The notes beneath the pieces were generated by a model that searched no databases, was not told where the DNA came from, and saw nothing but the letters and a program-made list of their open reading frames with translations. The position numbers were made by a program, and so were the translations under genes. Shown one piece after another: positions 967 to 20,800 of a stretch of DNA of 32,000 nucleotides. Numbering within the stretch: position 1 is the first letter of the stretch; every line of letters begins with the position of its first letter. Origin of the DNA: Acaryochloris marina MBIC11017 (GTDB lineage Bacteria; Cyanobacteriota; Cyanobacteriia; Thermosynechococcales; Thermosynechococcaceae). Location of the stretch: contig NC_009927.1 of assembly GCF_000018105.1 (NCBI RefSeq), positions 180,001-212,000 of the forward strand, given 5' to 3'.

Positions 967-1269
967 ATGAATTCATCAGACACAACTCAAATGCCCCAAT
1001 GGCTGGATGTCTTAGCAAAGCTTGCAACGATAGTCATCGCTATTGTCGCTCTGATTTCAGCTCTAGCTAGTGTCAATTTCTTCGTTGTTAGATCTGTTGT
1101 TGCAGAACAAATTACACCTCAATTCCAGCAAATAGATCAGCGATTTCAACAGGTCGATCAACGACTTCAGCAAATAGATCAGCGGTTCCAGCAGGTCGAT
1201 CAACGATTTCAGCAGATGGATCAACGACTAGAGCGGATTGAAATCAAGCTAGACAAAATCACGAATTAA
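967..1269 (+). CDS. N-terminally membrane-anchored coiled-coil protein with QxDQRFQ heptad repeats
   Basis: GGGAG lies 8 nt upstream of the ATG at 967. TM helix LAKLATIVIAIVALISALASVNFFVV is followed by QIDQRFQQVDQRLQQIDQRFQQVDQRFQQMDQRL. The longer 883 start overlaps the previous gene and is less likely. Confidence 0.55.
   Translation: MNSSDTTQMPQWLDVLAKLATIVIAIVALISALASVNFFVVRSVVAEQITPQFQQIDQRFQQVDQRLQQIDQRFQQVDQRFQQMDQRLERIEIKLDKITN
1124..1230 (+). repeat. tandem 21-nt (heptad-encoding) repeat, about 5 units
   Basis: CAAATAGATCAGCGATTTCAA / CAGGTCGATCAACGACTTCAG / CAAATAGATCAGCGGTTCCAG / CAGGTCGATCAACGATTTCAG / CAGATGGATCAACGACTA, read directly. Confidence 0.8.
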
Positions 1270-3316: not shown

Positions 3317-3467
3317 GGCTTGGTTTACCTTTTAGCTAATCGCGGGGAAGCCCCGCTTTGTACTGCAAGTGAAACGAAGCGGTCAACGTCGGGATGAGGA
3401 GCGGTGACCGCAGGGAACAATTCTAGGGACTACATAACACCTCCCTAGAAAAAGCTATAATAAGAAC

Positions 3468-4721
3468 ATGTTCACCATGACGTACCGCTACCGGATTTAC
3501 CCTAGCCTTGAGCAAGAGACACGGATGTTGTCTTGGCTTGAGACTTGTCGCTCTGTGTACAACTATGCGTTGAGAGAGCGAAAAGATTGGATCGGTAGCC
3601 GTAAGTGCCAGATAGACAGATGTTCTCTGCAGTCTGAGTACATCATTCCTGCAGATGCTCCCTATCCTGGCTATTACCCTCAAAAGAAAAACCTGACTCA
3701 GGCTAAGAAAGTCTTGCCACACCTGAAGGATGTGCATTCTCAAGTATTGCAAGATGTTTTGGGCAGGGTTGATGCGTCTTTTGAGGCCATGAGGCAAAGA
3801 GGTCACGGTTTTCCACGCTTTAAGAAGTTTGGACAATACCGTTCCTTCCTGTTCCCTCAGTTCAAGACCAGCCCAGTTCAGGGTAATCAAATTAAGTTGC
3901 CCAAGATTGGTTGGGTTCCGATTACCTTGCACAGACCCATACCCGATGATTTTGATATCAAGACAGTACGGGTTGTCCGCAAGCATTCGGGCTGGTACGT
4001 CGTGCTGTGTATCCAAGCTGATGTCTCTATCCCTGAAGTCCCACCTCATGGGCATTCGATTGGGATTGATGTTGGTTTGGAATATTTTCTGTCTACAAGT
4101 GATGGCGAGCAAATTGCTAGACCTCGCTTTTTCAACAAGCTCCACCGCAAGCTGGAATTGCTGCAACGGTGCTTGAAGCGAAAGCAAAAAAGGTCGAACC
4201 AACGCGCCAAGCTGATTCAGAGAATAGGGCGAGTGCATGAACAAATTGCGGCATCTCGACTGGACTGGCAATTTAAGCTGGCCCATCACCTGTGTGACCA
4301 AGCCCAAACCATCTTTGCTGAAGATTTGGACTTCCGAATCATGGCAAAAGGGATGCTGGGCAAACATACTCTTGATGCAGGGCTTGGGCAATTCCTGAAT
4401 GTTGTTCTGCCTTGGGTTTGCTTCAAGCGTGGAGTTTACTATGTCAAGGTTGACCCTAATGGCACGTCTCAAGAATGCCCTGACTGTGGAGCCAGGGTAA
4501 AGAAAGACTTGAGTGTTCGGATTCATGAGTGTCATGAGTGCGGGTCCGTAAAGCCGAGAGATGTTGCCAGTGGTCAAGTTATCAATGCCCGTGGTCTATC
4601 GGGTGTTCAAATTGCAAGTGGACGGGATCTATCGGGGTTTCAGGTGACTGATGCTAGACAAGACCGGACGAAGCTTGAATATTTCAAGAGCAATCTTGAG
4701 AAGCCCGCGTTGTATGCGTAG
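3468..4721 (+). CDS. tnpB: TnpB/OrfB RNA-guided endonuclease (IS200/IS605 accessory protein)
   Basis: N-terminal YRYRIYPSLEQE...L.....CRSVYNYAL signature. RuvC-I GIDVGL, RuvC-II IFAEDL, zinc ribbon CPDCG...CHECG, RuvC-III RDVASGQVI. Length is 417 aa. Confidence 0.9.
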   Translation: MFTMTYRYRIYPSLEQETRMLSWLETCRSVYNYALRERKDWIGSRKCQIDRCSLQSEYIIPADAPYPGYYPQKKNLTQAKKVLPHLKDVHSQVLQDVLGRVDASFEAMRQRGHGFPRFKKFGQYRSFLFPQFKTSPVQGNQIKLPKIGWVPITLHRPIPDDFDIKTVRVVRKHSGWYVVLCIQADVSIPEVPPHGHSIGIDVGLEYFLSTSDGEQIARPRFFNKLHRKLELLQRCLKRKQKRSNQRAKLIQRIGRVHEQIAASRLDWQFKLAHHLCDQAQTIFAEDLDFRIMAKGMLGKHTLDAGLGQFLNVVLPWVCFKRGVYYVKVDPNGTSQECPDCGARVKKDLSVRIHECHECGSVKPRDVASGQVINARGLSGVQIASGRDLSGFQVTDARQDRTKLEYFKSNLEKPALYA

Positions 4722-7170: not shown

Positions 7171-7221
7171 ACTTCAGCAGTAAATTTGAAAAATGTGGCA
7201 AGAGGGTAAAAGGGTAAAGGG

Positions 7222-8004
7222 CTACTGAAGAGGCCTGGGCGCAGAACAAACGACTCGAAAACCGAGATTGCTGCTGAGGCTCTTGGGGCTGTCGTTGTTG
7301 CGGTAAGCAGAGCGGCAAATCCTCGGATAGTGTTTCCAGGAGCCGCCGCGACGAATCCGACCAGCGCTTTCATTCTTAGACAACCAAGCACTCCCATCTG
7401 TGGGGGCACCTTTGTAACTGTCATGCCAATGGTCTTGGCACCATTCAAAAACATTTCCATACATATCACTCAGACCAAAAGCATTGGCTATGCCGAAGTG
7501 ATCGACAGGGGTTGTTTCTTCGCCCACATAATTAGCGACATCATTAGTGATGGTTTCCCCAAAATAGTAAGGAGTGGTGGTGCCTGCTCGACAAGCATAT
7601 TCCCACTCTGCTTCACTAGGTAATCGATATGGACGCTTCGTTAGGCTATCTAGTCGATTGCAGAATTCAACAGCCTCATACCAAGAAACTTGTTCAACGG
7701 GACGATTTTCGCCTTTAAAGTAAGAAGGTTCTGATTTTAAAGAACGCTCTACTGTTTCTAATTCAGCTACCACTTTCCACTGAGCTTGAGTGACGGGATA
7801 ACGTGACATAAAAAACGCCGGAACCGTCACCTCATGTTGTGGATCTTCGCGGCCCAATCGATCAGGCTCATCTTCTGGAGAACCCATCATAAAGGTGCCG
7901 CCCGGTACGAGAACCATATGGAGAGGCAAAGCATTGGGAATCTCTAACAGGGGTTCAATATATCCACTGCCAGTACGAGGGGTGCGTCGAAGGGTAGGGG
8001 CCAT
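7222..8004 (-). CDS. stand-alone FGE-sulfatase-fold (FGS/C-type-lectin-fold) protein, DGR target 1
   Basis: Family signatures [54 protein letters not shown] and RRGGSW...CRSAYR...[10 protein letters not shown]. No signal peptide or TM. Confidence 0.9.
7235..7355 (-). repeat. DGR variable repeat VR1 (3' end of 7222..8004)
   Basis: Aligns base-for-base with the TR at offset -951. Encodes [37 protein letters not shown]. Confidence 0.75.
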
Positions 8005-8177
8005 AGCAGTTTTTTGTAGGAGGGCCAGCTAAGTTTTCGGTTTCCCTACCAAAGTAGCCAGCCCAGGTTTATTTTTGGACAGCCCAACGGACCATCACTG
8101 GAATAGGCTCTGGACTCTTCTGGGGCACACCCGACAGATTCCCATCTGCCAGTTCTGGCCTGCTATTGCTAGCGGTA

Positions 8178-8306
8178 GAAGAGTGCTGGGCGCAGAACAA
8201 ACGACTCGAAAACCGATATTGTTGTTGCGGTTCTCGGGGTTGTTGTTGTTGCGGTAAGCAGAGCGGCAATTCCTCGGATTGTTGTTCCAGGAGCCGCTGC
8301 TTTGCG
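8178..8306 (-). other. DGR template repeat (TR), non-coding copy of the FGS C-terminus
   Basis: The minus strand reads ...[38 protein letters not shown] with 12 AAC/AAT codons. There is no upstream FGS domain, no start codon and no stop-flank element. Mismatches to the four VRs are almost all at TR adenines. Confidence 0.8.
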
Positions 8307-8407
8307 GCCTACCCCAGAAATTAGCATAACTGGACTGACCTTATTGATGGCAAGGATACTGAGTTTCTTTATGCTGAATGGCGTCCTTTCTTTGATCACA
8401 TCTAACG

Positions 8408-8545
8408 ATGAATACTGAATTGCCCATCATCCAGAAAACCTACGACCTGATTAAATGGTATGTCCCGATCATCAATCGATTGCCCGGAGTTCATCGGTTT
8501 CAACTGGGAGAAAAGAGCAGACCATTAAAATTCGTAAAAGGGTAA
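8408..8545 (+). pseudogene. avd: truncated avd (DGR accessory variability determinant), 45 codons
   Basis: [36 protein letters not shown] matches my recollection of the N-terminus of cyanobacterial four-helix-bundle Avd proteins (about 115-130 aa). The frame degenerates and stops where the conserved 3' flank of the 8558..9394 gene begins. Confidence 0.55.
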
Positions 8546-8557
8546 GAGGGTATAGGA

Positions 8558-9394
8558 CTACGGAAGAGACCTGGGCGCAGAACACACTACACGAAAACCG
8601 ATACTGTTGTCGCGGAACTTGGGGTTGTCGTAGTAGCGGTAAGCAGAGCGGCAATACCTCGGATTGAAGTCCCAGGAGCCGCCGCGACGAACTCGATATG
8701 CACTGTCATTCTCAGATATCCAAGCACTTCCATCTGTGGGGCCACCATCATAATCATGCCAATGGTCTTGGCACCATTCCCAGACATTCCCATGCAGATC
8801 ACTCAGACCAAACGCATTGCCTCCACCAAAGTGATCTACGGGAGTCGTTTGTTGGCGGTATTCTCCTTTGGGGCCACCACCATAGGACCCTGACAAGCCG
8901 ATAGATTCATCACCAATTCCATCGTAATTTGCTAGGTCAGTGGTAATCGTTTCTCCAAAGTGAAATGGGGTTGTGGTGTCCGCTCGACAGGCATATTCCC
9001 ACTCTGCTTCCGTGGGTAAACGATATTGTCGATTTGTGAGGTTGGTGATGCGATCGCAAAACTCAACTGCGTCATACCAAGACACTTTCTCAACTGGGTT
9101 GAGGTCACCTTTGAAATTCGATGGTTCAGAATCTAGCTCCCGATTAACTTGTTCCATCGCTGCTACCACCCGCCATTGGGCTTGGGTGACGGGGTATTGA
9201 GCCATAAAAAACCGAGAAAGGGTTACCTCATGCTGCGGTCCTTCAAAGTCTGAGCGGTCAACTTCCTCATTCGGAGAACCCATCAGAAAAGTTCCAGCAG
9301 GTATCTGCATCATCCGCAAAGGCAGCACGCCCTCAGCAAGAATCTCGTCGTAGAACTGGAGTGGGGCTTTGGTTTTGGTTATCGTATAACTCAC
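8558..9394 (-). CDS. stand-alone FGE-sulfatase-fold protein, DGR target 2
   Basis: Same signatures: [52 protein letters not shown] and RRGGSW...CRSAYR...[10 protein letters not shown]. Confidence 0.9.
   Translation of the reverse strand: MSYTITKTKAPLQFYDEILAEGVLPLRMMQIPAGTFLMGSPNEEVDRSDFEGPQHEVTLSRFFMAQYPVTQAQWRVVAAMEQVNRELDSEPSNFKGDLNPVEKVSWYDAVEFCDRITNLTNRQYRLPTEAEWEYACRADTTTPFHFGETITTDLANYDGIGDESIGLSGSYGGGPKGEYRQQTTPVDHFGGGNAFGLSDLHGNVWEWCQDHWHDYDGGPTDGSAWISENDSAYRVRRGGSWDFNPRYCRSAYRYYDNPKFRDNSIGFRVVCSAPRSLP
8571..8691 (-). repeat. DGR variable repeat VR2
   Basis: Aligns with the TR. Encodes [37 protein letters not shown]. Confidence 0.75.
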
Positions 9395-9436
9395 TGGAAA
9401 ATTCTTAAGAAAGTAATAGGGTAAAAGGGTAAAGGG

Positions 9437-12400
9437 CTACGGAAGAGACCTGGGCGCGGAACAAACGACTCGAAAACCGATAAGGTTGTCGCGGCCACCG
9501 GGGCCGTCGTTGAGGCGGGAAGCAGAGCGGCAATTCCTCGGAGGGCCGAGCCAGGAGCCGCCGCGACGCATCCGACGAGTGCTTTCATTCTCAGACAACC
9601 AAGCACTCCCATCCGTGGGTGCATCATAGTAATTGACATGCCAATAGTCTTGGCACCATTCCCAAACATTTCCATGCATGTCACTGAGACCAAACGCATT
9701 GGCAAAACTAAAATAATCTATAGGTGTTGTTTCTCCTCTTCTTTCACCTTTTGGACCATCTACAAAAGCACTTCCGCTGTAGTTAGCGACATCAGTAGTG
9801 ATCATGTCACCAAAGTGGAACGGGGTAGTGGTGCCCGCTCGACAGGCATATTCCCATTCGGCCTCCGTGGGTAATCGGTATTCACGGCCCGTGTATCTAG
9901 AAAGACGGTCACAAAACTCTATCGCGTCGAACCAGGATACTTTTTCTATTGGCCTATTATCCCCTTTGAATCTAGCTGGATCAGTCTCTAGTTCACGCTC
10001 AATCTGAGGTTGATTTGCAACGACTCGCCACTGAGCCTGGGTAATCGGGTAACGGCCTATAAAAAAGGACTCAACTGTAACTTGATGCTGAGGACCTTCA
10101 CGAACAAGCCTCTCAGGTTCAGTGTTTGGTGAACCCATCATAAAGGTACCAGCAGGTATTGATACCATTTCTAAATCTATTTTATCTAGTAGCCGCTCTA
10201 TATATCTATTTGCTGACTGTTGGTGTTGTTCCGTTTCCCATTTTTTCTGGCTCAAAATCAACTTAGCAACTGTAAAATCAAAGGATTCCACATTGATCGC
10301 ATCAGATATAGATTCCTCTGGCTGCAACCTTAAAATCGTGAAATCTCCTGTTTGCAACGGTGGCGGAAAGATATCTTGTTGAGAAGGCGGTACAAGGAGT
10401 GGATCATCCCAAAGGAAGGCTAGATCCCTAGCCCAATGGAATAATGGATTATCCTCTGTTGCTGCAAGACGAACGGCGAACACCTTCATGGGAATCTGCT
10501 CCATTGTTCCGTTGAGGATGTTCTCATTAAGAAACTGTTGCCAATTATCAGTGATTTTTTCTTTACGACTCCACAATACAATTGGAGTACCATTTTCAAG
10601 TACTCCTCTAACTTCTGCACTTTGGAAACCAGAGCCAAGGGTCAAGCCTAATCGAGAGCCTTGACTTAACGAGATCAGATCTTCAGGTTGACCAAAGGGC
10701 CAATTATCAAATGCATCGTTGGAATTATCGTTCCAACGTTCTTGCAACTGTGCCCACTGTAATTGCAATTTTTGGGTATATTGAAGACTCTCAACGCGCT
10801 CTTTTAAGCGCAACACTACAAAATTACAGTCCCTGCCAATCCCTATAGGATCATCGGTATTTGATAGAGAGGGGATGCCCATCTGTTCTATCGGTAAATC
10901 TAGTAAACTCTGGGGAAGAAACAGATGGATAGTGAAAACAGTCTTTTCAGTTTGGGTACGGGCTTGCTCTAATAAGCTGGCTAAAACACTTGGAATATCT
11001 TGAAAGGTAATCCCCTCAGATAATCTAGAGTCGCTACTACCATTTCCGTATCGATTGATATCCAAGGTAGATAAATACTGAACACCTTCTCCTGTCTGGG
11101 CATTGTAATTCTTGGGATTTGGCACCAACCAAGCGTCGACAAAGTACTGATCGGCCTTGGGACTACGTTCATCAAACGAGATAAGTAAAGTAGTGAGGGG
11201 CACTTTCGGAAGAATTTCTATGTCATTGGCAAGTACCCCTTCATCAAACTCGAATGCTTCGAGTTCAGGGAAGTTGATATATTCTGAAACTTGGTAGGTT
11301 AGGGTCTCATGGGTGAAACCTTCCAACCAAGCCACTTCATTTTGACGATTTTCTAAGCCTGAATCGTCTTGCCTCTGTTGACTCTCTAATTGGCGCACGA
11401 TTTCAGCAAAATCTGACCCAGCTGTACGTAAAATCTGAGCCGTCACTTTGGCAAAGGCTTTTAATCCATATTGGTCTACCTCATCTTTCAGATCAGGAGA
11501 TAGTAAGAGAGCTTGGAAATCAGCCAGTGTACAATTCAATCGTTCTGCGACATGTTGAGATACTTTTTCGATCACCTCAAGCTTGTCTACATTGGGTAGA
11601 ACATCCAGCAGGCGGTTGCGTACCGTCTCTGGAAAAAGATATTGTACGACTTCAGACTCTAACTCTGGTGGTTGTTCAGGTGCTTTGGTTAGTAGCCCTC
11701 CCAAAAACACCTCGGCCACAGGTAGGGGGGATGAACCAGGTAAGAACTCATCTGAAGCACGGATAAGTCGCATTACAGGCAGAGTTATAACAGGTGCTGC
11801 GGATAACAACGCAGCTAATCGCCGAGCTTCTGGCGTTGCCCTTAACCGAAAGTCTTCTAGCAAGCCATCAACAATTTCTTCTGACTCCAATTCGCTGGAT
11901 GTTGGGGTTGCGGACCATCCTGTTGAAGGCAACATAAAGCCTGGAGCTGAGTAGCGTCGATCTCCCGCTAACATTCGGCTCCAAGCACCAAGATATTCAC
12001 TATCACTCGTGATGATAGGAATACAGACTGGTGATGAGGATTGGGTTTCCTGGGTTTGGTCTGGTTCTTGATCACTCCGACGGCGACCACGATTCACAGT
12101 TGATCGCAAAGACATATAAATTGGGGTTAGTTTGGTGTTTTTTGCTCCCGGTGTTCGACTACGAACAGCCACATACTCTCCAATCCCTAATGCAGTTCGT
12201 TTCCACATCCAATCGGGTAACACTTGCCAGATCGCCGTGGGTGTTGAATCTCCCCAAAGGGACAATATTGGCTGCAACGAACCATCCCACCAGTAGTTGG
12301 CTGTGCAATCACTAAAGACTAAGATCAATCGCCGAGCATCGGGAGTTAAAAGTGCGTTAGGAGAGCGTAGTACTGGATCTGGGGCAGCACAGATGCCCAC

Positions 12401-13042
12401 TTCCCCCTGCTTCACATTGAGTTGCCAAACTCGAAAATCACGAAAAGAGCCATAACAGCGTAGCAACCTCCTTATATCTTGGATTAACCTCTGCCAAAGA
12501 TCCATCGCTGGGCTGCTATCAATGACCAAGGCCACTTCATACCACGGTTCTTGGTCCGGTTCTAGGATCGGGGACCAGATATCAGTTTCAGCAATGCGCT
12601 CAACTGTCTCAGCTTCATTCACTGAACTGCAAAACTGGGAATCAATTTGCTTCAAGATAGGCTTCAGTGCCCTGACTAGGGGTAAGGTTTCATCCAGAAT
12701 GTCAGGGTCAGGAATAGAGATGGGTAAAGCTTTTTGGGGAAGTTTCCCCGAAGGCAACTCCGGTGCAACGCCAAAGTCCGGTTCGTCTACCTCGTCATTC
12801 TGGTTATCATTGTCGTCATCCTCTTCGTTTCCTGCATCCTCTTCGTTTCCATTTTCCAAGTCGAGATTGTCATCATCAACATCCTCAAGCTCCAGGTTGT
12901 CATCAGGATCTTTGTTCTCTTGATCGACATCACTAACATCAAATTTCTCTGGTTCGCGCAATGCCAGCCATAGGATTTCAGCTATTTCAGTAGGGTCTAG
13001 CTTATATTCAGTCAGAGCGGACACAAATTGCTCAGTACTCAT
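9437..13042 (-). CDS. large multidomain protein: short N-terminal helical module, acidic linker, vWA-like domain, long middle region, C-terminal FGE-sulfatase-fold sensor (DGR target 3)
   Basis: vWA-like strand/MIDAS region YEVALVIDSSPAMDLW with a later LILVFSDCTANYW. D/E/N-rich linker at aa 36-90. The C-terminal 270 aa carry all FGS signatures ([10 protein letters not shown] ... RRGGSW...CRSASR...[10 protein letters not shown]). The start lies 14 nt after the MoxR stop. Confidence 0.85.
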   Translation of the reverse strand: MSTEQFVSALTEYKLDPTEIAEILWLALREPEKFDVSDVDQENKDPDDNLELEDVDDDNLDLENGNEEDAGNEEDDDNDNQNDEVDEPDFGVAPELPSGKLPQKALPISIPDPDILDETLPLVRALKPILKQIDSQFCSSVNEAETVERIAETDIWSPILEPDQEPWYEVALVIDSSPAMDLWQRLIQDIRRLLRCYGSFRDFRVWQLNVKQGEVGICAAPDPVLRSPNALLTPDARRLILVFSDCTANYWWDGSLQPILSLWGDSTPTAIWQVLPDWMWKRTALGIGEYVAVRSRTPGAKNTKLTPIYMSLRSTVNRGRRRSDQEPDQTQETQSSSPVCIPIITSDSEYLGAWSRMLAGDRRYSAPGFMLPSTGWSATPTSSELESEEIVDGLLEDFRLRATPEARRLAALLSAAPVITLPVMRLIRASDEFLPGSSPLPVAEVFLGGLLTKAPEQPPELESEVVQYLFPETVRNRLLDVLPNVDKLEVIEKVSQHVAERLNCTLADFQALLLSPDLKDEVDQYGLKAFAKVTAQILRTAGSDFAEIVRQLESQQRQDDSGLENRQNEVAWLEGFTHETLTYQVSEYINFPELEAFEFDEGVLANDIEILPKVPLTTLLISFDERSPKADQYFVDAWLVPNPKNYNAQTGEGVQYLSTLDINRYGNGSSDSRLSEGITFQDIPSVLASLLEQARTQTEKTVFTIHLFLPQSLLDLPIEQMGIPSLSNTDDPIGIGRDCNFVVLRLKERVESLQYTQKLQLQWAQLQERWNDNSNDAFDNWPFGQPEDLISLSQGSRLGLTLGSGFQSAEVRGVLENGTPIVLWSRKEKITDNWQQFLNENILNGTMEQIPMKVFAVRLAATEDNPLFHWARDLAFLWDDPLLVPPSQQDIFPPPLQTGDFTILRLQPEESISDAINVESFDFTVAKLILSQKKWETEQHQQSANRYIERLLDKIDLEMVSIPAGTFMMGSPNTEPERLVREGPQHQVTVESFFIGRYPITQAQWRVVANQPQIERELETDPARFKGDNRPIEKVSWFDAIEFCDRLSRYTGREYRLPTEAEWEYACRAGTTTPFHFGDMITTDVANYSGSAFVDGPKGERRGETTPIDYFSFANAFGLSDMHGNVWEWCQDYWHVNYYDAPTDGSAWLSENESTRRMRRGGSWLGPPRNCRSASRLNDGPGGRDNLIGFRVVCSAPRSLP
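9450..9570 (-). repeat. DGR variable repeat VR3
   Basis: Aligns with the TR. Encodes [37 protein letters not shown]. Confidence 0.75.
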
Positions 13043-13056
13043 TTACAGCCAGCCTC

Positions 13057-14238
13057 TCAGGTCAAACGCCTTAGCAAAATCTGTTTGAGCATTTCAAGTT
13101 CAGTTTCTTTATCCTCTTCACTCAAACCCGAACCCGATAGCTGAGACTGGCGAACCATGTAAATTAAATTGAGGAGCTGATCCGTTGCCAAAGAAGACTG
13201 TTTACGCTGAAGATCCTTGGCAAAGTTCTCAATCAATTGTGCAACTTTTGGTTCTAATTCTGACCAGGGCAGTTCTGTCTTAGGGCGGTCTTTCCGCTCA
13301 AAATGAGCACCTACTATATGGGTTAAAACGGCACTGTCAGAAGGATCTGGCATCGTGATTCGCAGACAGCGGCGCAAAAAGGCGGGGGGAAAGTCACGTT
13401 CTCCGTTACTAGTCATAATCACCAAGGGGAACTCATAACAAGTAACCTTGCCTTGCTCAATGTCAGCAGGGAGACCTTCATCCTCTGTACGGACTGGAAC
13501 AGGCACATCCGTTTTGTAGCGGACGAGTTCAGGTATCTCAAAACTACCTTCTTCAAAGAGGTTGAGAAGATCATTCGGTAAATTCAGCTCGCTTTTATCA
13601 ATTTCATCTATCAGCAATACTCGGGGTAAATGGGAAGGTAAAAAAGCGGTACCTACCGGGCCAAGTTGGATATAATCGCCAAGATTTCTACCTTGTTTTA
13701 ATTCATCAATTTTGTTGTGATCTAATGGCTGATCGTCCGACTTTGCCAGCAGCAACTGGAGTTCAAGTTCCGATTTATCAAATTGGGTGTCCTGCAAACG
13801 GGCAATCGCATCATAGCGATACTGGGCATCAGAAAGCTTGGAACGAGTGGTAATGGGCCAGAGCAAAACTGGCCCCAGTTGTAATTCATAGGCGATCGCA
13901 TAGGCTAAAGAGGTCTTACCTGAACCTGGATTTCCCGTGATAAGTAGTGGACGTCGCAATGCCAAGGCTGAGTTTATAGCTGAAATAATTTCAGATTGCC
14001 TACCTTCAGATTGACGGATACGAAAGCTTTCGCCACGTTCTTTTGAACGAGTATCAAGACGATTTGAGTCTCGCAATTGCTTCCAGCGAGTTTTACTAGC
14101 ACCAGCCCACTTATCCTCAAAGATTGCTTGTGACATAAACTGCCGCCATGCGGGTCGCTCCTGAATAGGTTTCAGGGCGGCTTGGCGGGGTGTCCTATCT
14201 TCATTGGGTTGGGCTGTAAAAAATTTCCAGTCAGTCAT
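13057..14238 (-). CDS. MoxR-like AAA+ ATPase
   Basis: Walker A LLITGNPGSGKTSLA, Walker B VLLIDEIDKS, sensor-1 VIMTSN, Arg-finger region PPAFLRRC. Single AAA+ module of 393 aa. Operonic with the vWA gene, which is the classic MoxR-vWA pairing. Confidence 0.85.
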   Translation of the reverse strand: MTDWKFFTAQPNEDRTPRQAALKPIQERPAWRQFMSQAIFEDKWAGASKTRWKQLRDSNRLDTRSKERGESFRIRQSEGRQSEIISAINSALALRRPLLITGNPGSGKTSLAYAIAYELQLGPVLLWPITTRSKLSDAQYRYDAIARLQDTQFDKSELELQLLLAKSDDQPLDHNKIDELKQGRNLGDYIQLGPVGTAFLPSHLPRVLLIDEIDKSELNLPNDLLNLFEEGSFEIPELVRYKTDVPVPVRTEDEGLPADIEQGKVTCYEFPLVIMTSNGERDFPPAFLRRCLRITMPDPSDSAVLTHIVGAHFERKDRPKTELPWSELEPKVAQLIENFAKDLQRKQSSLATDQLLNLIYMVRQSQLSGSGLSEEDKETELEMLKQILLRRLT

Positions 14239-14264
14239 AGTGGAATCACCAATCTTTTGGGCTT

Positions 14265-16211
14265 TTAAGTCGGTTGCGTCAACCGACCGGATTCATTGAC
14301 AGCTAATGTAGGTAAGCACGGTATCCGGGTGCAATTATCAAATAAAAACCCCAGTTCTTGAATCTTTTTTCGGTGGGTCAAAATTGACTCTCCCAAGGCA
14401 GCAGATTCCGTAAAATTCTCGGGTTTCAACACTTTATCCACAGTCTTTTTGAATTCATCCCCATTTACAGGAGTTTCATAAGTCCACAACCAAAGTGGCA
14501 CTTTCTCTTCAATCACTCCTGAAATTAAGCTTCTTAATTCATCTATATCTTCTGGCAATGTCTCCCAAAGTTTAAAGACCAGTTTCTCCGGTAATTCGTC
14601 TTCAAATATTTCATCCGTGAAACACTCTACGCAACAGGTATGTTGATCTAGAGGTTGTTGCATAGTTTTTAACTGCTGCATTCTAACCTTTAAATCTTTA
14701 ATCCATAATTCAGACCAAAGTGGATCTAATAATCGATCTAATGAGCGAACAACAGTGTTGTATGGAAATCGCCAAAGTGGCTTACGACGTGTTTTTCCTA
14801 AACTCGTCCAAATTTTCCATTTGTGAACAGGCTGCCCAAAATGTTGCCAAGACAAGAAAATCTCAACCGCTCTCACTTCCCCCGCATTGGGAATTACTTC
14901 TGATAAGTGCTCCCATACTTGTTCAATCGAGCATTTAGGATAATCGGTTAATAAACTTGTTCTTGTTTGTTCTCCGCAAACATAGAGTTCCGCCAAAATT
15001 CGAACGGTATCTACCGTAGCACTTGCATCACCAGGTTCCGTATCTACAACAGGCTCTAATGTGACCAGAAGATATTTCTGACTCGGTTCTTGCTTTGGGT
15101 CAACTTCAAGCTCGGTGGGTGCGTTAGCGTCATACCATACCTGCCATTCAGGTTTTATTTCACATTCATTCTCATTGTTAGGAAAGTCTTGTAACTTTTT
15201 GATCAGATGACCGACCCAAGACACTGCCAACACCTGATCGTCCAACCGAATAAGGGCCTGCTTCAACGCGGCGAAGGTTTCAATCGAGCCTAGTAAATCG
15301 TCTTTACGATTGTCTAAAACCTCCCTCAGTGCAGCTTCAAGAAAATCTAGATCATAATCTCCCAAGCATATAAATAAATCGTCCCAAAACTTAGTCTCAA
15401 CCTTATAAGAAGTTTTCCCTACTCCAGGAATTCTGGGTTTAGGGTCATAATTTGCCAACAGGTGAAAAGCTAAAGCACTGGCATGATGAGAAGCCTTTTG
15501 CTGACGCTTATCTTCAGATTTTTGCCCCTTGCCATCATTCTTATGATCAATCAAGTCTGAGATGCCCCGAATCACAATAGCGGATAGTGGTTTGTCACGG
15601 GCATTGACAGCCTCAAGGAATCCATATCCTTCCATCTCCACGGCCAAAGCATCACTATAATTTTTTCGCAGCAATTTATAAACGTTCGACTCTTTTGAAG
15701 CCACTACCTTTTCGCCAACAGCGATTGGCCCCACCCTAAGGCGAGGGGTTGTATTATAAGGCTGTTTAACTCTTGCCAACCAATTTGGTGCTTCACTTCG
15801 GGCTTCTGCCTTGGCTTCCTCTACCAGGCTGAAGCCACTCAAGCCAATGTGAGGTCGTGGTTTGAATTCTTCCTCAGCCTTACCGGATTCATAGCCATAG
15901 ATTTTTGTAGACGCAACGACATCACCTATATCTACATCTTTTAGACCTCCCGCTACACCGACAAAGAAAACAACATCAGGATCAAAATATGTAATGGCCC
16001 GTTCTGTTTGTAGGGCAGATCTTGAGTCACCAGCTCCAGTCTGCACGATGCCTACTGTCCATATGCGACCATTCGCTTTAAATGTCCCCTTCTCATATCG
16101 ATTTCCTTCAGGATGAATAATGCGCGTGGGATCGGCGACAAACTTTCTTACTTCTTTAAATTCAACGGGTAATGCTGTCAGAATGACGGCTTTCAAGGAA
16201 TCCTGAACCAT
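14265..16211 (-). CDS. nucleoside phosphorylase/nucleosidase-fold (PNP_UDP_1-like) effector fused to a ~400-aa C-terminal region (vWA-MoxR-associated, VMAP-like)
   Basis: N-terminal 250 aa: AVILTALPVEF, VQTGAGDSRSAL, FFVGVAGGL, AVEMEGYGF and VIRGISDL. These are the conserved strands and loops of the MTA/SAH-nucleosidase / PNP fold. The stop lies 26 nt upstream of the MoxR start. Confidence 0.8.
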   Translation of the reverse strand: MVQDSLKAVILTALPVEFKEVRKFVADPTRIIHPEGNRYEKGTFKANGRIWTVGIVQTGAGDSRSALQTERAITYFDPDVVFFVGVAGGLKDVDIGDVVASTKIYGYESGKAEEEFKPRPHIGLSGFSLVEEAKAEARSEAPNWLARVKQPYNTTPRLRVGPIAVGEKVVASKESNVYKLLRKNYSDALAVEMEGYGFLEAVNARDKPLSAIVIRGISDLIDHKNDGKGQKSEDKRQQKASHHASALAFHLLANYDPKPRIPGVGKTSYKVETKFWDDLFICLGDYDLDFLEAALREVLDNRKDDLLGSIETFAALKQALIRLDDQVLAVSWVGHLIKKLQDFPNNENECEIKPEWQVWYDANAPTELEVDPKQEPSQKYLLVTLEPVVDTEPGDASATVDTVRILAELYVCGEQTRTSLLTDYPKCSIEQVWEHLSEVIPNAGEVRAVEIFLSWQHFGQPVHKWKIWTSLGKTRRKPLWRFPYNTVVRSLDRLLDPLWSELWIKDLKVRMQQLKTMQQPLDQHTCCVECFTDEIFEDELPEKLVFKLWETLPEDIDELRSLISGVIEEKVPLWLWTYETPVNGDEFKKTVDKVLKPENFTESAALGESILTHRKKIQELGFLFDNCTRIPCLPTLAVNESGRLTQPT

Positions 16212-16298
16212 TCAAATTTGTGATTTTTTTAGGGTTTCTAGTCTAATGCTCAGTAGAAAATACAAGTATAGTGATTAGGTAATACCATATTTAGAATA

Positions 16299-16853
16299 AT
16301 GGATCGAACTGAGAAAACATTACAAATATTTTTGGAAGAATATCGTGTCCTCAAAGCTGAACAAAATAGTCGAATCGGATTTCGAGACAATCTACTCTAT
16401 GTCACATTAGGTCTTTTTGGTGGAATCCTTTCTTTTGCCCTAACAAACGATAACGGGACAAACGCATTACTTGTTGTTCCTTGGGTCTGTATAGTTATGG
16501 GCTGGACCTATGTAGTCAATGATGAAAAGATTTCAGCGATAGGTCGCTATATTAGACACAATCTTGAAAAAAGGATTTCTAATCTCATTGAAGGGTCTGC
16601 AGATTCCGAATCTTTGTTTGGTTGGGAAAAAGCTCATCGCAGCGATTCTAAACGAACAAGTCGCAAATACTTACAGCTATTAGTAGACGAAGTTGCTTTT
16701 GTTTTTTCAGGCTTAGCAGCAATAGTTCTATTCTGCTTATCCAGTACTAATTGCCCAACCCCAATCATCATTTTAATAGCCTTTGAATCTTTCTTCCTCA
16801 TTAGTTTAGGAATCACAATTGCTATCTATGCTGATTTAGCAAAAGGACGCTGA
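16299..16853 (+). CDS. integral membrane protein (184 aa, about 4 TM), function unknown
   Basis: Hydrophobic segments LLYVTLGLFGGILSFAL, ALLVVPWVCIVMGWTYV, VAFVFSGLAAIVLFCL and IIILIAFESFFLISLGITIAIY. Divergent from the PNP-MoxR-vWA operon. Confidence 0.5.
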   Translation: MDRTEKTLQIFLEEYRVLKAEQNSRIGFRDNLLYVTLGLFGGILSFALTNDNGTNALLVVPWVCIVMGWTYVVNDEKISAIGRYIRHNLEKRISNLIEGSADSESLFGWEKAHRSDSKRTSRKYLQLLVDEVAFVFSGLAAIVLFCLSSTNCPTPIIILIAFESFFLISLGITIAIYADLAKGR

Positions 16854-16908
16854 ACTAGCCAGATTTCCAGTCATTATAAAAATTGCAAGAGGGAAAAAGG
16901 GTAAAGGG

Positions 16909-17709
16909 CTACTGAAGAGGCCTGGGCGCTGAACAAACTACTCGAAAACCGATATGGCTGAGGCGGCTCTCGGGGGAGTTGTAGGAGCGGCAAGCAGAGC
17001 GGCAATCCCACGGATAGCTGTACCAGGAGCCGCCGCGAATAACGCTAGAGTCATCAATTCTATCCCCCTCCCAAAAGGGGCTACCATCTGATGGCACGTC
17101 AAGGTAATCAGAGCCGTAGTAGTCTTGGCACCATTCCCAGACATTGCCATGCATATCATATAACCCCCAACGATTAGGGGAATAACTTTCAACAGCACTT
17201 GTTTGGCCTATCATTTCATCTTCTAAGTAATTTGCCAGTTTGGGAGTGATTTTTTGCCCAAAATGATATGCAGTCTGAGTTTCAGCTCTACAGGCATATT
17301 CCCACTGGGTTTCACTAGGTAAGTGAAAATTTTTTCCAGTCTTTGATGACAGGCGCTTGCAAAATTCTACTGCTTCATACCAACTTACCGACTCTACAGG
17401 GAAGTCATCACTTTCGAATGCTGAAGGTGATAGATCTACAGTTCCATCTTGTTCTTCATACCCGGCTACTACCCGCCACTGTTCCTGAGTAACAGGTGTA
17501 GTTCCCATCAAAAATTGAGGTAATTGGATACATTTTTGGCGTTGTTTATCTTGGGTGTCACCTGATTCATTTTCATCATTACTAATCCACAATTCCCCTG
17601 CAGGAATAAGCATTAATGTCAGTGGCACATCATCACCGAGATCTATGGTGTAGCTCTCATTCGTACACTCATATTCAAAGAGGGTGAGGGAATCAACAGT
17701 ATTAGCCAC
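16909..17709 (-). CDS. stand-alone FGE-sulfatase-fold protein, DGR target 4
   Basis: [42 protein letters not shown] and IRGGSW...CRSACR...[10 protein letters not shown]. More diverged in its N-terminal half than the other paralogues. Confidence 0.9.
   Translation of the reverse strand: MANTVDSLTLFEYECTNESYTIDLGDDVPLTLMLIPAGELWISNDENESGDTQDKQRQKCIQLPQFLMGTTPVTQEQWRVVAGYEEQDGTVDLSPSAFESDDFPVESVSWYEAVEFCKRLSSKTGKNFHLPSETQWEYACRAETQTAYHFGQKITPKLANYLEDEMIGQTSAVESYSPNRWGLYDMHGNVWEWCQDYYGSDYLDVPSDGSPFWEGDRIDDSSVIRGGSWYSYPWDCRSACRSYNSPESRLSHIGFRVVCSAPRPLQ
16922..17042 (-). repeat. DGR variable repeat VR4
   Basis: Encodes [37 protein letters not shown]. In the 81-nt variable core, all 16 mismatches to the TR are at TR adenines (hand alignment). 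Confidence 0.8.
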
Positions 17710-17855
17710 TGACCTAGAGAGAAGATGTTAGTGATTTTTAAGCAGATACATAATTTGATATTTGATCATTGTTGCACCATCTACTATATTTTTGGCCTTT
17801 CATAAGAATTTGCCTATCTATATAAATATAGGCCAACAATTTTTTGAGCTAGTCT
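17710..17855 (+). promoter_or_regulatory. candidate oriT / relaxase promoter region
   Basis: AT-rich intergenic segment directly upstream of the relaxase. It contains the inverted repeat TTGGCCT..(28 nt)..AGGCCAA enclosing GCCTAT-CTATATAA-ATAGGC (about 17793..17841). No nic site could be identified by eye. Confidence 0.3.
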
Positions 17856-20800
17856 ATGCTAAACATTACCACCATCAACTCAAATATCAAGGATGGGGCC
17901 AAGTACTACACCAAAGAAGAGAGTTACTACAGCCAAAACAAAGAAATTCAGAGCATGACTCAAACAGAATGGTTTGGCAGCATGGCACCGGATGAGCATT
18001 ACTCTGCCGAGCTTTTCACGGAGATGTTTTACGGCAACCTTCCCAACGGCGGGCGTATGCGAAATGAGGTCAAGGGAAAGGGCCAAGAACGCTTAGCTTA
18101 CGACCTTACATTCTCTGTTCCTGGTAAATCTCTCAGCATGTCTATCCACGGACCTAACGGAGATAAGCGACTCTGGAATGCCCACGTTGAGACTATCAAG
18201 GAAGTGCTGGCCATCGTAGAAGAACGCTACGCCGCCGCTAGAATTCAGGCCAACAATGATCGCCAAGTTGTGAAGACAAGCAGCATCGCCGCTGCCCTCG
18301 TCCACCACCATGAAACCAGAGCTGGGGATCCGCATGTACATACCCATGTCGTTCTTTTCAACGGCACCCTATGCCCGGACGGTGAATATAGGGCTATGTA
18401 TATCGAGCCTCTCATTAGAAGCGGTATTTTAGGCGATCTGTACGACCAGAAGATGGCCCTCAAAGTCCAAGAGCTGGGCTATGAAATCCGAGAGACAAAA
18501 ACAGGCTTTGACCTTGCCGGGGCTACAGATGAGCAGATTAAAAAATTCAGTAAGCGCTCAACGGAAATCGAGGATTATTTAAAAGAGAAAGGTTGGAGCA
18601 ACACCCCAAAAAATCGACAGAAGGCAACCTTTGAGACTCGAATCGGCAAGGATATTACGGAGTCATTAGAGCAGAAGCAGGAAAGATGGGGAGAAGAGAT
18701 GGCCTCAGTCGGTTTCCATGGCCTAACTCCTTCCGATCAACCTATCAAGCCTGAAAGCCAAGAGACACCCAGAGAGCTTTTAGACGCTGCTATCGAACAT
18801 CTAACAGAACATCAATCCTCGTTCAATGCCGAGGACATACAGCGGTTTGTGTTCTCTCACCTCCGAAGTTTTGATGAGAAGCCCTTGAACACCGAGATAT
18901 CCAAGCACCCGGACTTGCTAACTGCCTGGGATGGCCGACTGACTACACAGACCGCTGTCGATAGAGACCAACGAATTCTAGATATCGTCCTGTTTAAGGA
19001 TAGTAAGGTTGAACCGCTGAACCCAACCGCTGACTTTAGCGACACGATGTTAAACAGTGGTCAGGCCGAAGCCATGAAACGCTTACTCAGCTTTTCAGAT
19101 CAGTACCAAATCCTAAAGGGACTAGCAGGCACGGGGAAGACAACTGCTCTCGGCCTTGCAAGAGAGCAGTTACCCCCGGATGTCGATATCAAAGTTTTTG
19201 CACCTACCCACAACGCCAAACATCAAATCAGTGAGGCCTTTGGACTTAAGGGGGCAACCATAGCCAGCTTTGTTGTCAGCCCACCCCCAGAAGGGGCTAA
19301 CCAGCTTTGGATATTTGATGAAGCGGGCATGTTTGGCAGCGCAGACATGGAGAAGATACTTCAGAAAGCCGAACAGGTGGGGGCTAGGTGTTGGTTTGTC
19401 GGCGACACGGGTCAGAATGCCTCTATCTCTGCTGGTGCGCCTGTACGAATGCTGATGAATAGAGGGGTCACAGTTCACCGCCTTGACCAGATCATTAGAC
19501 AGCAAAACAAAGAACAGCTTAGGGCCGTTGAGCTTATCGCCGATGGTCACGGGGTTGAGGCTCTCAGAGCCTTAGAAAAAAATGGAAATATCAGAGAAGT
19601 CGAGGACTCGGAAACCAAGCTCACAAGTGCCGTTGCCTATTACATGGAGAAGCCTAAACATCGCCGAGACAAAACTCTCGTTGTGGTGGGGACCAATGCT
19701 GAGCGGTTTGGTTTTACCAAACTCCTAAGAGCCGAGCTTATCAAGGAAGGCCAGCTTACCAAGAATACAGAATTCACCCAGCTCCAGCGAAGAAACCTAT
19801 CTAAGGCCCAAAAGAAACGGGCCGAGAACTATAACAAGGGCGATTTACTGGTACTGCACAAGAAGCACCGACTCTATACCCAATTGCAGACCCATGTCCC
19901 TTATAAAGTCCTCGCCGTGGAGGGCAAAAAACTCAAGGTCCAATCACTGGGCGGTCGGAATTTCACCATCAATCCTGCAGAACATGAGTTAACCCAGGCT
20001 TATACGACAAGGCGCAATCAAATTGCTGTTGGTGATAAGCTCCGGTTCACTTCAACCAACATGAAAAAGGATATTCACAATAATGCTTTTTTGACCTGCA
20101 CCGATATCAAAGATCAGATTGCAACGGTCAAAGACAAACACGGTCGAGTGCATCACTTAGACCTCACCAAGCCCCTACAGATAGATCATGACTGGGCCAC
20201 TACCACTTATAGATCACAAGGTAGTACCAACTCAGAAACCCTCTATATTGCTAGCCTTAACCCTACCTCAGCTAGAGAATCCTTTTATGTTGGCATCTCC
20301 CGAAACAAGACTAAATACCTGACCGTATTTACGGAGGACCTGAGTAAGCTCCAAGAGTGGGTTGCACAGTCCAATGCTCAAGAGAACGCACTAGAGATAC
20401 TATTTGACCCCCATGCGGGCTGGAGTCCAACCTATGACAAGGAAGAACGGCCCTTTGGCTTGGATGAGGACACATGGACCGAGATGAAAGGTAGCGGTAT
20501 TCACCCCAACCTATTGACCTCGAACCATCTCCGAAGTGAAGCCCCCGATCCTTATGGATCTATCCGTGATAACCCACTAGTTGCAGCCCTCTTGGAGGCT
20601 GAGTTTACCAAGTCCAAATACGGCAAAGGCCAGGAAGTTACTGGCAAAATGAAACAATATCTACACGGTGCTTCGACAGTGGAAGGCCATACCGTCTATG
20701 ACCATGAAAAAGAATATGGTCGGATTGCTCAAGGTGGGGGTTGGATTGGTTATGGTGGCGTTGATTTGCTTTCAGTCATTGAGGGCAATCCTCAACCATC

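Follow-up and report, generated by a model that had tools for sequence, protein, structure and literature searches.

A template repeat and four variable repeats near the ends of four genes

We analyzed a 32,000-nt stretch of DNA from Acaryochloris marina MBIC11017 (contig NC_009927.1, positions 180,001 to 212,000; referred to below as the window), which we take to belong to plasmid pREB2 of this strain. It carries parts of a diversity-generating retroelement (DGR) of the cyanobacterial, Avd type, namely a template repeat (TR) and four variable repeats (VRs). Exact alignment revealed five repeat copies of ~125 nt, namely one TR that is rich in AAC and AAT codons and four VRs, and the differences between the VRs and the TR were almost confined to TR adenines. 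All five lie on the minus strand, which is the strand of the features described below unless stated otherwise, and they were compared in ungapped register as copies of ~160 nt starting at positions 7191, 8142, 8527, 9406 and 16878.

The TR (8178-8302) is non-coding. The VRs form the last ~39 codons of four intact open reading frames (ORFs), all of which match the Pfam FGE-sulfatase family, PF03781, with E values from 1e-43 to 1e-55, and the TR lies outside any such gene. T1 (7222-8004) encodes a stand-alone FGE-sulfatase/C-type-lectin fold of 260 aa (PF03781, E = 1.7e-54) and T2 (8558-9394) a stand-alone FGE-sulfatase fold of 278 aa (Pfam E = 1.7e-53). In T3 (9437-13042; 1201 aa), a SAV_2336 N-terminal domain is joined to VMAP-C and FGE-sulfatase, and T4 (16909-17709; 266 aa) is a divergent stand-alone FGE-sulfatase paralogue. 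The alignment and the four ORFs therefore agree with the original prediction of one TR and four VRs in four different genes.

Our main statistics refer to the 112 nt of the TR that lie between the boundaries of the repeat (8186-8297) and contain 30 adenines, mostly in AAC and AAT codons. Over this block, VR1 (7227-7351), at the 3' end of T1, differed from the TR at 9 adenines and 3 other positions; VR2 (8563-8687), at the end of T2, at 12 and 3; VR3 (9442-9566), at the end of T3, at 18 and 2; and VR4 (16914-17038), which ends T4 and is located 8.7 kb from the TR, at 16 and 2. When the four VRs were pooled, 55 mismatches fell on adenines and 10 on other bases (Fisher p = 1.2e-26), and 26 of the 30 TR adenines were altered in at least one VR. 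The original prediction had counted mismatches by hand over a shorter core of 81 nt (8217-8297), and the machine alignment gave identical numbers: 9 adenine and 3 other mismatches for VR1 (Fisher p = 2.6e-3), 11 and 1 for VR2 (p = 1.7e-5), 18 and 1 for VR3 (p = 4.6e-10) and 16 and 0 for VR4 (p = 9.1e-10), so that 54 were at adenines and 5 elsewhere (54 of 59). Its codon examples and the scaffold that it described as invariant in all copies were borne out by a translated comparison, and the GAG-to-AAG change that it noticed in both VR1 and VR2 is real and lies at TR position 8235. This pattern had been proposed as the signature of DGR mutagenic retrohoming, and the adenine statistics agree.

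Further evidence for retrohoming came from T4. The body of its protein is only 42-47% identical to those of T1-T3, yet its VR scaffold is identical, and VR4 agrees with the TR at all but 2 of 82 non-adenine positions. A divergent body joined to a TR-like VR indicates overwriting from the TR rather than common descent. The ends of the repeats also differ between donor and recipients. The 3' boundary of the TR, GCGCCCAGCACTCTTC (8178-8193), is an IMH*-like end (IMH, initiation of mutagenic homing), and where the TR has GCGCCCAGC the recipients have GCGCCCAGG. The recipient boundary, GCGCCCAGG(C/T)CTCTTC, is present in 4/4 VRs of the window and in 3/3 VRs of the closest public relative, plasmid pREC1 of A. 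marina MBIC10699 (NZ_AP026076.1, DGR at ~51.7-59.8 kb), and both TRs read GCGCCCAGCACTCTTC. Judged by sequence, this difference would match the one that separates IMH from IMH* in DGRs.

We considered whether the repeats might instead be paralogous gene ends shaped by gene conversion and by positive selection on a few ligand-contact codons, with no retrohoming at all. The target genes are paralogues, and two non-adenine changes, at 8235 and 8203, are each common to a pair of VRs, so some exchange among the genes is possible. Codon selection, however, would not confine the differences to a single base type in a copy that is non-coding (p = 1e-26). The adenine-rich copy is found outside the target genes and is followed by the structure of a DGR template RNA, the sibling locus on pREC1 encodes both Avd and a reverse transcriptase (RT), and the same TR/VR logic recurs in ~50 related loci. 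This explanation is effectively refuted by the adenine statistics.

The window has lost avd and the RT gene

The original prediction had described the locus as a multi-target DGR. The TR and the four targets stand, but the window lacks an RT and its avd gene is cut, so it does not contain a complete DGR. A tblastn search of the 32 kb with the pREC1 RT yielded a best E value of 3.6, and Pfam scans found no RVT domain among the submitted window ORFs of at least 100 aa.

Comparison with pREC1 showed what is missing. In both plasmids the DGR is located between parM and the MobF relaxase gene, in a backbone that is ~98% identical. The order in pREC1 is parM, an FGE gene, the TR region, avd, RT, an FGE gene, a long FGE gene, a MoxR ATPase gene, the effector gene and the MobF relaxase gene. 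Full-length avd (110 aa) and RT (369 aa) genes are present there on the strand opposite to the TR and the targets, and the window has lost both. In both plasmids, the TR lies upstream of avd-RT and in the opposite orientation. T1-T3 are orthologous in the two (77% identity for T1 and 88% for T2), and the motif that flanks the VRs is alike.

What remains of avd in the window is a plus-strand stub of ~34 codons (8411-8511), which is transcribed away from the TR. It matched the bAvd profile at positions 3-34 of 107 (E = 0.008), and tblastn with pREC1 Avd recovered residues 1-32 at 90.6% identity. Its frame continues into unrelated sequence up to a stop at 8546-8548, giving an ORF of 45 codons (8411-8548, plus strand). 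Window positions 8300-8419 align to the pREC1 segment upstream of avd, positions 8420-8511 to avd codons 4-34, and the sequence from 8534 on to the flank of the next target gene in pREC1. The ~22 nt between 8511 and 8534 resemble the last RT codons; this junction (8512-8533, plus strand) holds a diverged remnant of ~20 nt of the RT 3' end, with the last codons and the stop. Relative to pREC1, ~1.33 kb is therefore absent, from avd codon ~35 to the last RT codons (~13642-14975 of L001, the pREC1 locus). The window locus is the template and target, or cis-acting, half of a DGR without the enzyme half.

All five substitutions between the avd stub and pREC1 fall within 32 nt beside the junction (8484-8511 versus L001 13614-13641), and there are none in the first 60 nt of the stub. 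Such clustering might result from decay of the stub, or else from recombination in a tract linked to the deletion. In pREC1 itself, an IS200/IS605 element (tnpA and tnpB; L001 11748-13549) is inserted after avd codon 4, at the counterpart of window position 8419/8420, and it parts avd-RT from the TR and the native promoter.

Since near-identical repeats of this kind do break short-read assemblies, the gap might have been an assembly error caused by the five copies, the real plasmid having a complete DGR. Several Logan contigs do stop at or near the repeats, as L003 does in the TR (8187) and L004 in VR3 (9544), or else within T2 (8981). However, L003, which comes from an independent run (DRR194263), crosses the junction and matches window positions 8187-19132 at 100% identity, and the diverged RT 3' remnant and the 34-codon avd stub at the junction are traces of a real deletion, not of a collapsed repeat. 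We thus regard an assembly error as very improbable.

The template RNA structure is preserved

The TR is part of a non-coding template RNA gene of ~300 nt (8022-8317). Its structured 3' domain (8022-8177) was delineated by covariation in an alignment of 45 sequences (A2). RNAalifold predicted four main helices and two 2-bp helices from these 45 sequences, with 39 pairs, 33 of which had compensatory changes. The fraction of paired cells was 96.1%, as compared to 30-46% with slid partners, and none of 500 shuffles reached the observed values. By itself, the single-sequence fold of the region 3' of the TR was not significant (z = -1.4), and the comparative analysis was decisive. The structure supported by covariation is fully present in the window, and the sequence 3' of every TR is conserved across the clade loci for which TR/VR sets were obtained (see below).

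Along the RNA, the 3' domain includes stem P1; an extra small hairpin (8159-8174), which the window shares with its closest relatives; a 9-bp stem-loop with a GGGA tetraloop (8131-8152), which by likeness is of the Avd-binding type, the extra hairpin lying between it and P1; a further stem-loop (8077-8098), after which comes a stretch rich in A (8067-8076); and, at the end, a long hairpin (8022-8066). The TR is bracketed by a duplex, in which the upstream strand CUGGGGUAGGCC (8306-8317) pairs with positions 8098-8109 on the 3' side (-22.6 kcal/mol, z = -2.5). The pairing GGGGUAGGC/GCCUAUUCC recurs elsewhere in the clade, and in L133 and L163 it is maintained by compensatory changes.

In DGR RNAs, Handa et al. 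(bioRxiv 10.1101/2023.10.23.563531) described an Avd-binding stem-loop, which has 9 bp and, in Cyanobacteriota, GNRA loops, and a 'cPRT Stop' element composed of a duplex, a stem-loop and adenosines. The RNA elements of the window correspond to both. No Rfam family (Rfam 15) matched in the window, and scans for sigma-70 promoters and terminators around the TR gave results no better than those for shuffled sequences.

A pyrimidine repeat follows the VRs

Unlike the TR, VR1 is followed immediately by a pyrimidine repeat, which starts at the stop codon (TAG CCCTTTACCCTTTTACCCTCTTGCC; 7191-7226). The VR3 and VR4 flanks carry it as well (9406-9441 and 16878-16913), and the VR2 flank (8527-8562), which adjoins the RT 3' remnant, has a more degenerate copy. 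The VRs of the clade share such a repeat, with a period of 7-8 nt, from the stop codon on, in forms such as TAGCCCTTTGCCCTTTTGCCCTCTTGCCC and TAGCCCTTTRCCCTTTTRCCCTYTTRCCC. The flank consensus, TAG CCCTTT(G/A)CCCTTTT(G/A)CCCT(C/T)TT(G/A)CCC, is absent from every TR of the clade, and the pyrimidine fraction in these loci is 0.76 in VR flanks versus 0.43 in TR flanks.

For a held-out test, we trained a profile of the flank on 26 loci and ran it on 29 others (296 kb). All of its 28 matches were VR ends; 27 were among the 44 catalogued VR flanks, and the 28th was a VR end at a contig edge. The VR2 flank of the window was not recovered by this profile. Within the window, the flank motif occurred at the four VR flanks only, with 7 matches versus 0.44 expected. 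Among the four paralogues of the window, identity was 85% in the flank, 67% in the 300 nt upstream of the VR and 55% in the next 35 nt.

The specific placement of this repeat suggests that it may serve as the target-recognition element of the clade, in the role that the GC hairpin/cruciform has in phage DGRs, although we put this forward tentatively, as one possibility and not the favored one. The ordinary alternative is that it could be a 3' untranslated region or terminator element shared by the target genes. If the repeat does mark recipients, it could explain how distant paralogues such as T4 were recruited as targets. We found no description of it in the papers covered by a limited search. 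A G-quadruplex or i-motif in the flank was considered and rejected, as four C3 runs were present in only 7 of 79 flanks and three in 19 of 79. In many relatives, a GC-rich hairpin with a 3-4-nt loop follows the pyrimidine repeat; the window is not among them.

Drift of the VRs and the state of the locus

The three VRs of pREC1 carry 46 adenine mismatches and no others, whereas the four VRs of the window have 10 other mismatches in addition to their 55 adenine mismatches (Fisher p = 0.005). Comparison with a sibling plasmid had been suggested in the original prediction, and it showed that VR differences in the two strains are not evenly spread over adenine and non-adenine columns. Six of the 10 non-adenine changes in the window are synonymous third-position changes. 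Five of these six fall in the RVVCS scaffold, which precedes the GC-rich boundary, at TR positions 100, 103 and 109, and the sixth, at position 70 of VR3, is inside the mutagenized zone.

Two explanations had been offered for these changes, drift since the last use of the locus and copying from another TR. Our results favor drift, as the non-adenine changes number 10 versus 0 while the TR blocks are identical. The pREC1 TR is the same as that of the window throughout the 112-nt block, including every position of a non-adenine change, and the one difference between the TRs, a substitution private to the window, lies just outside it at 8298. The four VRs carry four different haplotypes, or combinations of these changes, and another donor TR is unlikely on these grounds. 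A donor with adenines at positions 68, 100 and 109 was considered and rejected, because 6 of 7 non-adenine VR bases at these positions are the base of the present TR, as compared to ~1/3 expected.

By analogy with Bordetella, we would expect the 3' scaffold to be reset at each homing event. Third positions were changed in 7 of 148 cases across the four window VRs. Between the window and pREC1, 7 of ~400 positions of the TR-RNA region differ, and 12.4% of the third positions in the relaxase gene are changed. Together, these values suggest that the last homing took place after the window and pREC1 had split, but not by long; the numbers are small. The TR region, 99% identical between the two plasmids, is the best-conserved piece of the locus, and the conflict module next to it is heavily reshuffled.

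These observations can be combined in the following model, which relies on the known DGR mechanism for its first steps. The template RNA would be copied by an RT-Avd complex with random incorporation opposite adenines, and the cDNA would then replace the last ~110 nt of the four FGE-sulfatase/C-type-lectin genes. The recipients would be marked by a boundary unlike that of the TR and by the pyrimidine repeat of 7-8 nt right after the stop codon. The 1.33-kb internal deletion would then have removed avd-RT, after which the four VRs would be frozen, with ordinary substitutions starting to accumulate in them. As avd-RT is lost, the locus cannot diversify by itself. We therefore consider it likely that the decapitated DGR is a frozen relic and that slight drift has occurred in its VRs after the last homing event.

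Several points weigh against this conclusion. The RT search covered 32 kb, and the MBIC11017 genome comprises ~8 Mb with nine plasmids, so a working RT-Avd pair elsewhere in it could act in trans. The TR, the RNA structure, the four ORFs and the VR flanks are all intact, and an element that died long ago should have decayed further; the 7 differences in ~400 positions of the TR region fit recent loss and continued constraint alike. Some DGRs with an intact RT also have non-adenine differences (Wu et al. 2018, PMC5758913), and the ten changes in the window are thus not proof of inactivity. Finally, consensus assemblies cannot show variants at low frequency.

If the cassette were still active, an RT-Avd pair from elsewhere in MBIC11017 would diversify the four VRs in trans, and the non-adenine changes would be rare RT errors or selected variants. 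Besides the intact cis elements, among them the Avd-binding-type stem-loop and the boundaries, and the 99% identity of the TR region to pREC1, this possibility gains plausibility from the conservation of the RNA elements across RTs that are only 64-80% identical, which a related RT could plausibly use, and trans activity at incomplete loci has been proposed for Thiohalocapsa (PMC10907252). However, the 3' scaffold, which should be reset by every homing event, contains one or more synonymous non-adenine changes in each of VR2, VR3 and VR4, and VR3 has a further one within the mutagenized zone; the RT-bearing pREC1 has none in its three VRs. The consensus sequence, including VR2-VR4 where covered, is identical in eight runs from two accession series and in the window. 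For MBIC11017, a single DGR RT has been reported (GI 158333546), and it is 'split by IS4 element' (PMC3521204, Additional file 2); it belongs to a separate, probably chromosomal locus. That RT was not recovered among the 120 matches listed for a query of the N-terminal 160 aa of the RT, and the close RT homologues that we traced (Logan P0001-P0004) were all from other samples, none of them MBIC11017 sequencing runs. On balance, continued activity in trans appears unlikely, and a frozen relic remains the interpretation that we prefer. Three distinct lesions of DGR enzyme genes are now apparent in Acaryochloris: the deletion in pREB2, the IS200/IS605 insertion in pREC1 and the IS4-split RT of MBIC11017.

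The conflict-system neighborhood and other features

The target genes adjoin genes of a putative conflict system. T3 matched NF041121 (SAV_2336_NTERM) with 347.6 bits against a cut-off of 200, as well as PF20028 and PF03781; in the Pfam scan, no vWA model matched it. The next gene (13057-14238) encodes a MoxR-like AAA+ ATPase, which is 47% identical to the annotated MoxR family ATPase of pREC1 and matched AAA_5, AAA and MadB_ATPase, all under the curated cut-offs. It is followed by an effector gene (14265-16211), whose product is a nucleoside phosphorylase domain (PNP_UDP_1, E = 4.9e-24) fused to VMAP-C (E = 2.5e-17). Both domains pass the Pfam cut-offs, and PADLOC assigned the protein to PDC-M60C, a PN-superfamily effector. 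A VMAP-C protein with an effector is thus present, as in the MoxR-vWA-VMAP ternary conflict systems of Kaur et al. 2020 (PMC7159879), and we propose that T3 is the putative diversified sensor of a MoxR/VMAP/nucleoside-phosphorylase conflict system.

This module (9437-17709 in the window, 15907-21784 in L001) differs substantially in pREC1. The N-terminal part of the sensor is 28% identical between the plasmids, and the effector of pREC1 is a serine protease (with a CU044_2847 protein) instead of a nucleoside phosphorylase. T4 and a membrane protein of 184 aa (16299-16853; ABW31988.1), which matched no family, are present in the window and not in pREC1. The conjugative backbone of the window includes the TrwC/MobF relaxase (ABW31991.1), a coupling protein, an M23 peptidase and ParM.

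Three further features were observed. An IS605-family OrfB/TnpB gene (3468-4721, plus strand) has HTH_OrfB_IS605, OrfB_IS605 and Cas12f1-like TNB domains. It overlaps with a long ORF in antisense orientation (3423-4577), and an adjoining tnpA was not seen. An ORF at 883-1269, whose small product has a predicted membrane segment, contains four to five tandem copies of a 21-nt unit at 1123-1241 (plus strand); these encode QQ(I/V)DQRF heptads, which make up a short, coiled-coil-like repeat. Lastly, the 18-base pattern TTGCCGCTCTGCTTNCCGC, which encodes C-R-S-A-x-R, matched genomes of many phyla (L013-L130 among the matches listed); some of these may represent TRs or VRs of DGRs with other lectin-fold targets that share the scaffold codons, and most are probably chance matches.

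Significance and comparison with known systems

The locus represents a natural endpoint of DGR evolution, in which a template RNA and four recipients outlast the deleted enzyme genes, and it occurs in a strain that is widely used in laboratories. The contrast of 0 non-adenine changes in the RT-bearing sibling with 10 in the RT-less plasmid is one that was expected, but not observed, in earlier surveys. Because DGR searches anchored on the RT miss such loci, the number of DGR targets is underestimated. MBIC11017 could also be used as a test bed for the cis elements of homing in a clade that diversifies putative immune sensors. The general understanding of DGRs is unchanged by this locus.

BPP-1, the prototype DGR, from a Bordetella phage, resembles the window in its adenine-specific transfer from TR to VR, the position of the VR at the 3' end of a lectin-fold gene, the presence of avd, a GC-rich boundary that differs between VR and TR, and an RNA stem-loop just 3' of the TR together with a bracketing duplex. 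In contrast, it has a single target, the phage tail fibre, and does not split its parts between the two strands. Downstream of its VR there is a GC hairpin/cruciform that has a GRNA loop (PMC3240598), whereas the VR flanks of the window have the pyrimidine repeat; no GC hairpin was seen in them by eye, and no formal hairpin search was run.

The closest known systems belong to the cyanobacterial clade '5E' (Dore et al. 2024, PMC10907252; Vallota-Eastman et al. 2020, PMC7517822), which includes Nostoc punctiforme Npun_F4889-F4892. The pREC1 RT is 64-84% identical to RTs of this clade, which has an Avd accessory gene. We searched 80 metagenomic loci with RTs 64-79% identical to that of pREC1, plus L001, L010 and L011, for adenine-biased repeat pairs, and ~50 of them gave TR/VR sets. 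Like the window, clade members have C-type-lectin/FGE-sulfatase targets, often at least two, MoxR/vWA/VMAP neighbors, the conserved template-RNA structure and the VR flank. Unlike them, the window is missing its RT. In most members, avd, RT and TR share a strand and the TR lies 20-100 nt downstream of the RT, whereas only in the window, pREC1 and the closest metagenomic loci (L132-L135) is avd-RT inverted relative to the TR and the targets. We take the host, A. marina, to be unicellular, as it is usually described. The clade has been reported to be 98% multicellular (PMC10907252).

Inactivated or incomplete DGRs have been reported before (PMC3521204; PMC10907252) and resemble the window in having intact TR/VR sets with an RT that is truncated, interrupted or absent. 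The published inactivated DGRs, one of which is the IS4-split case from MBIC11017, show adenine-only differences, which were read as a sign of very recent inactivation. In the window, by contrast, nearly all of the RT gene is gone and non-adenine changes have started to build up.

Much of what the window displays is therefore already published. The original prediction rightly called a DGR with four VRs uncommon, although such DGRs are documented, in 3 of 155 cases (Schillinger et al. 2012, PMC3521204). Inactivated RTs with intact repeats, incomplete loci, structured RNAs and the association of cyanobacterial DGRs with MoxR/VMAP neighbors (PMC10907252) have likewise been described. The orientation of the TR opposite to the RT was considered as a novelty and rejected, since this strand split had already been noted (Wu et al. 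2018, PMC5758913; Schillinger et al. 2012, PMC3521204). Mildly new, in comparison with these systems, are the non-adenine contrast measured against a sibling that has an RT, the VR flank repeat shared across the clade, and the occurrence of such a DGR on a conjugative plasmid in what is probably a unicellular host.

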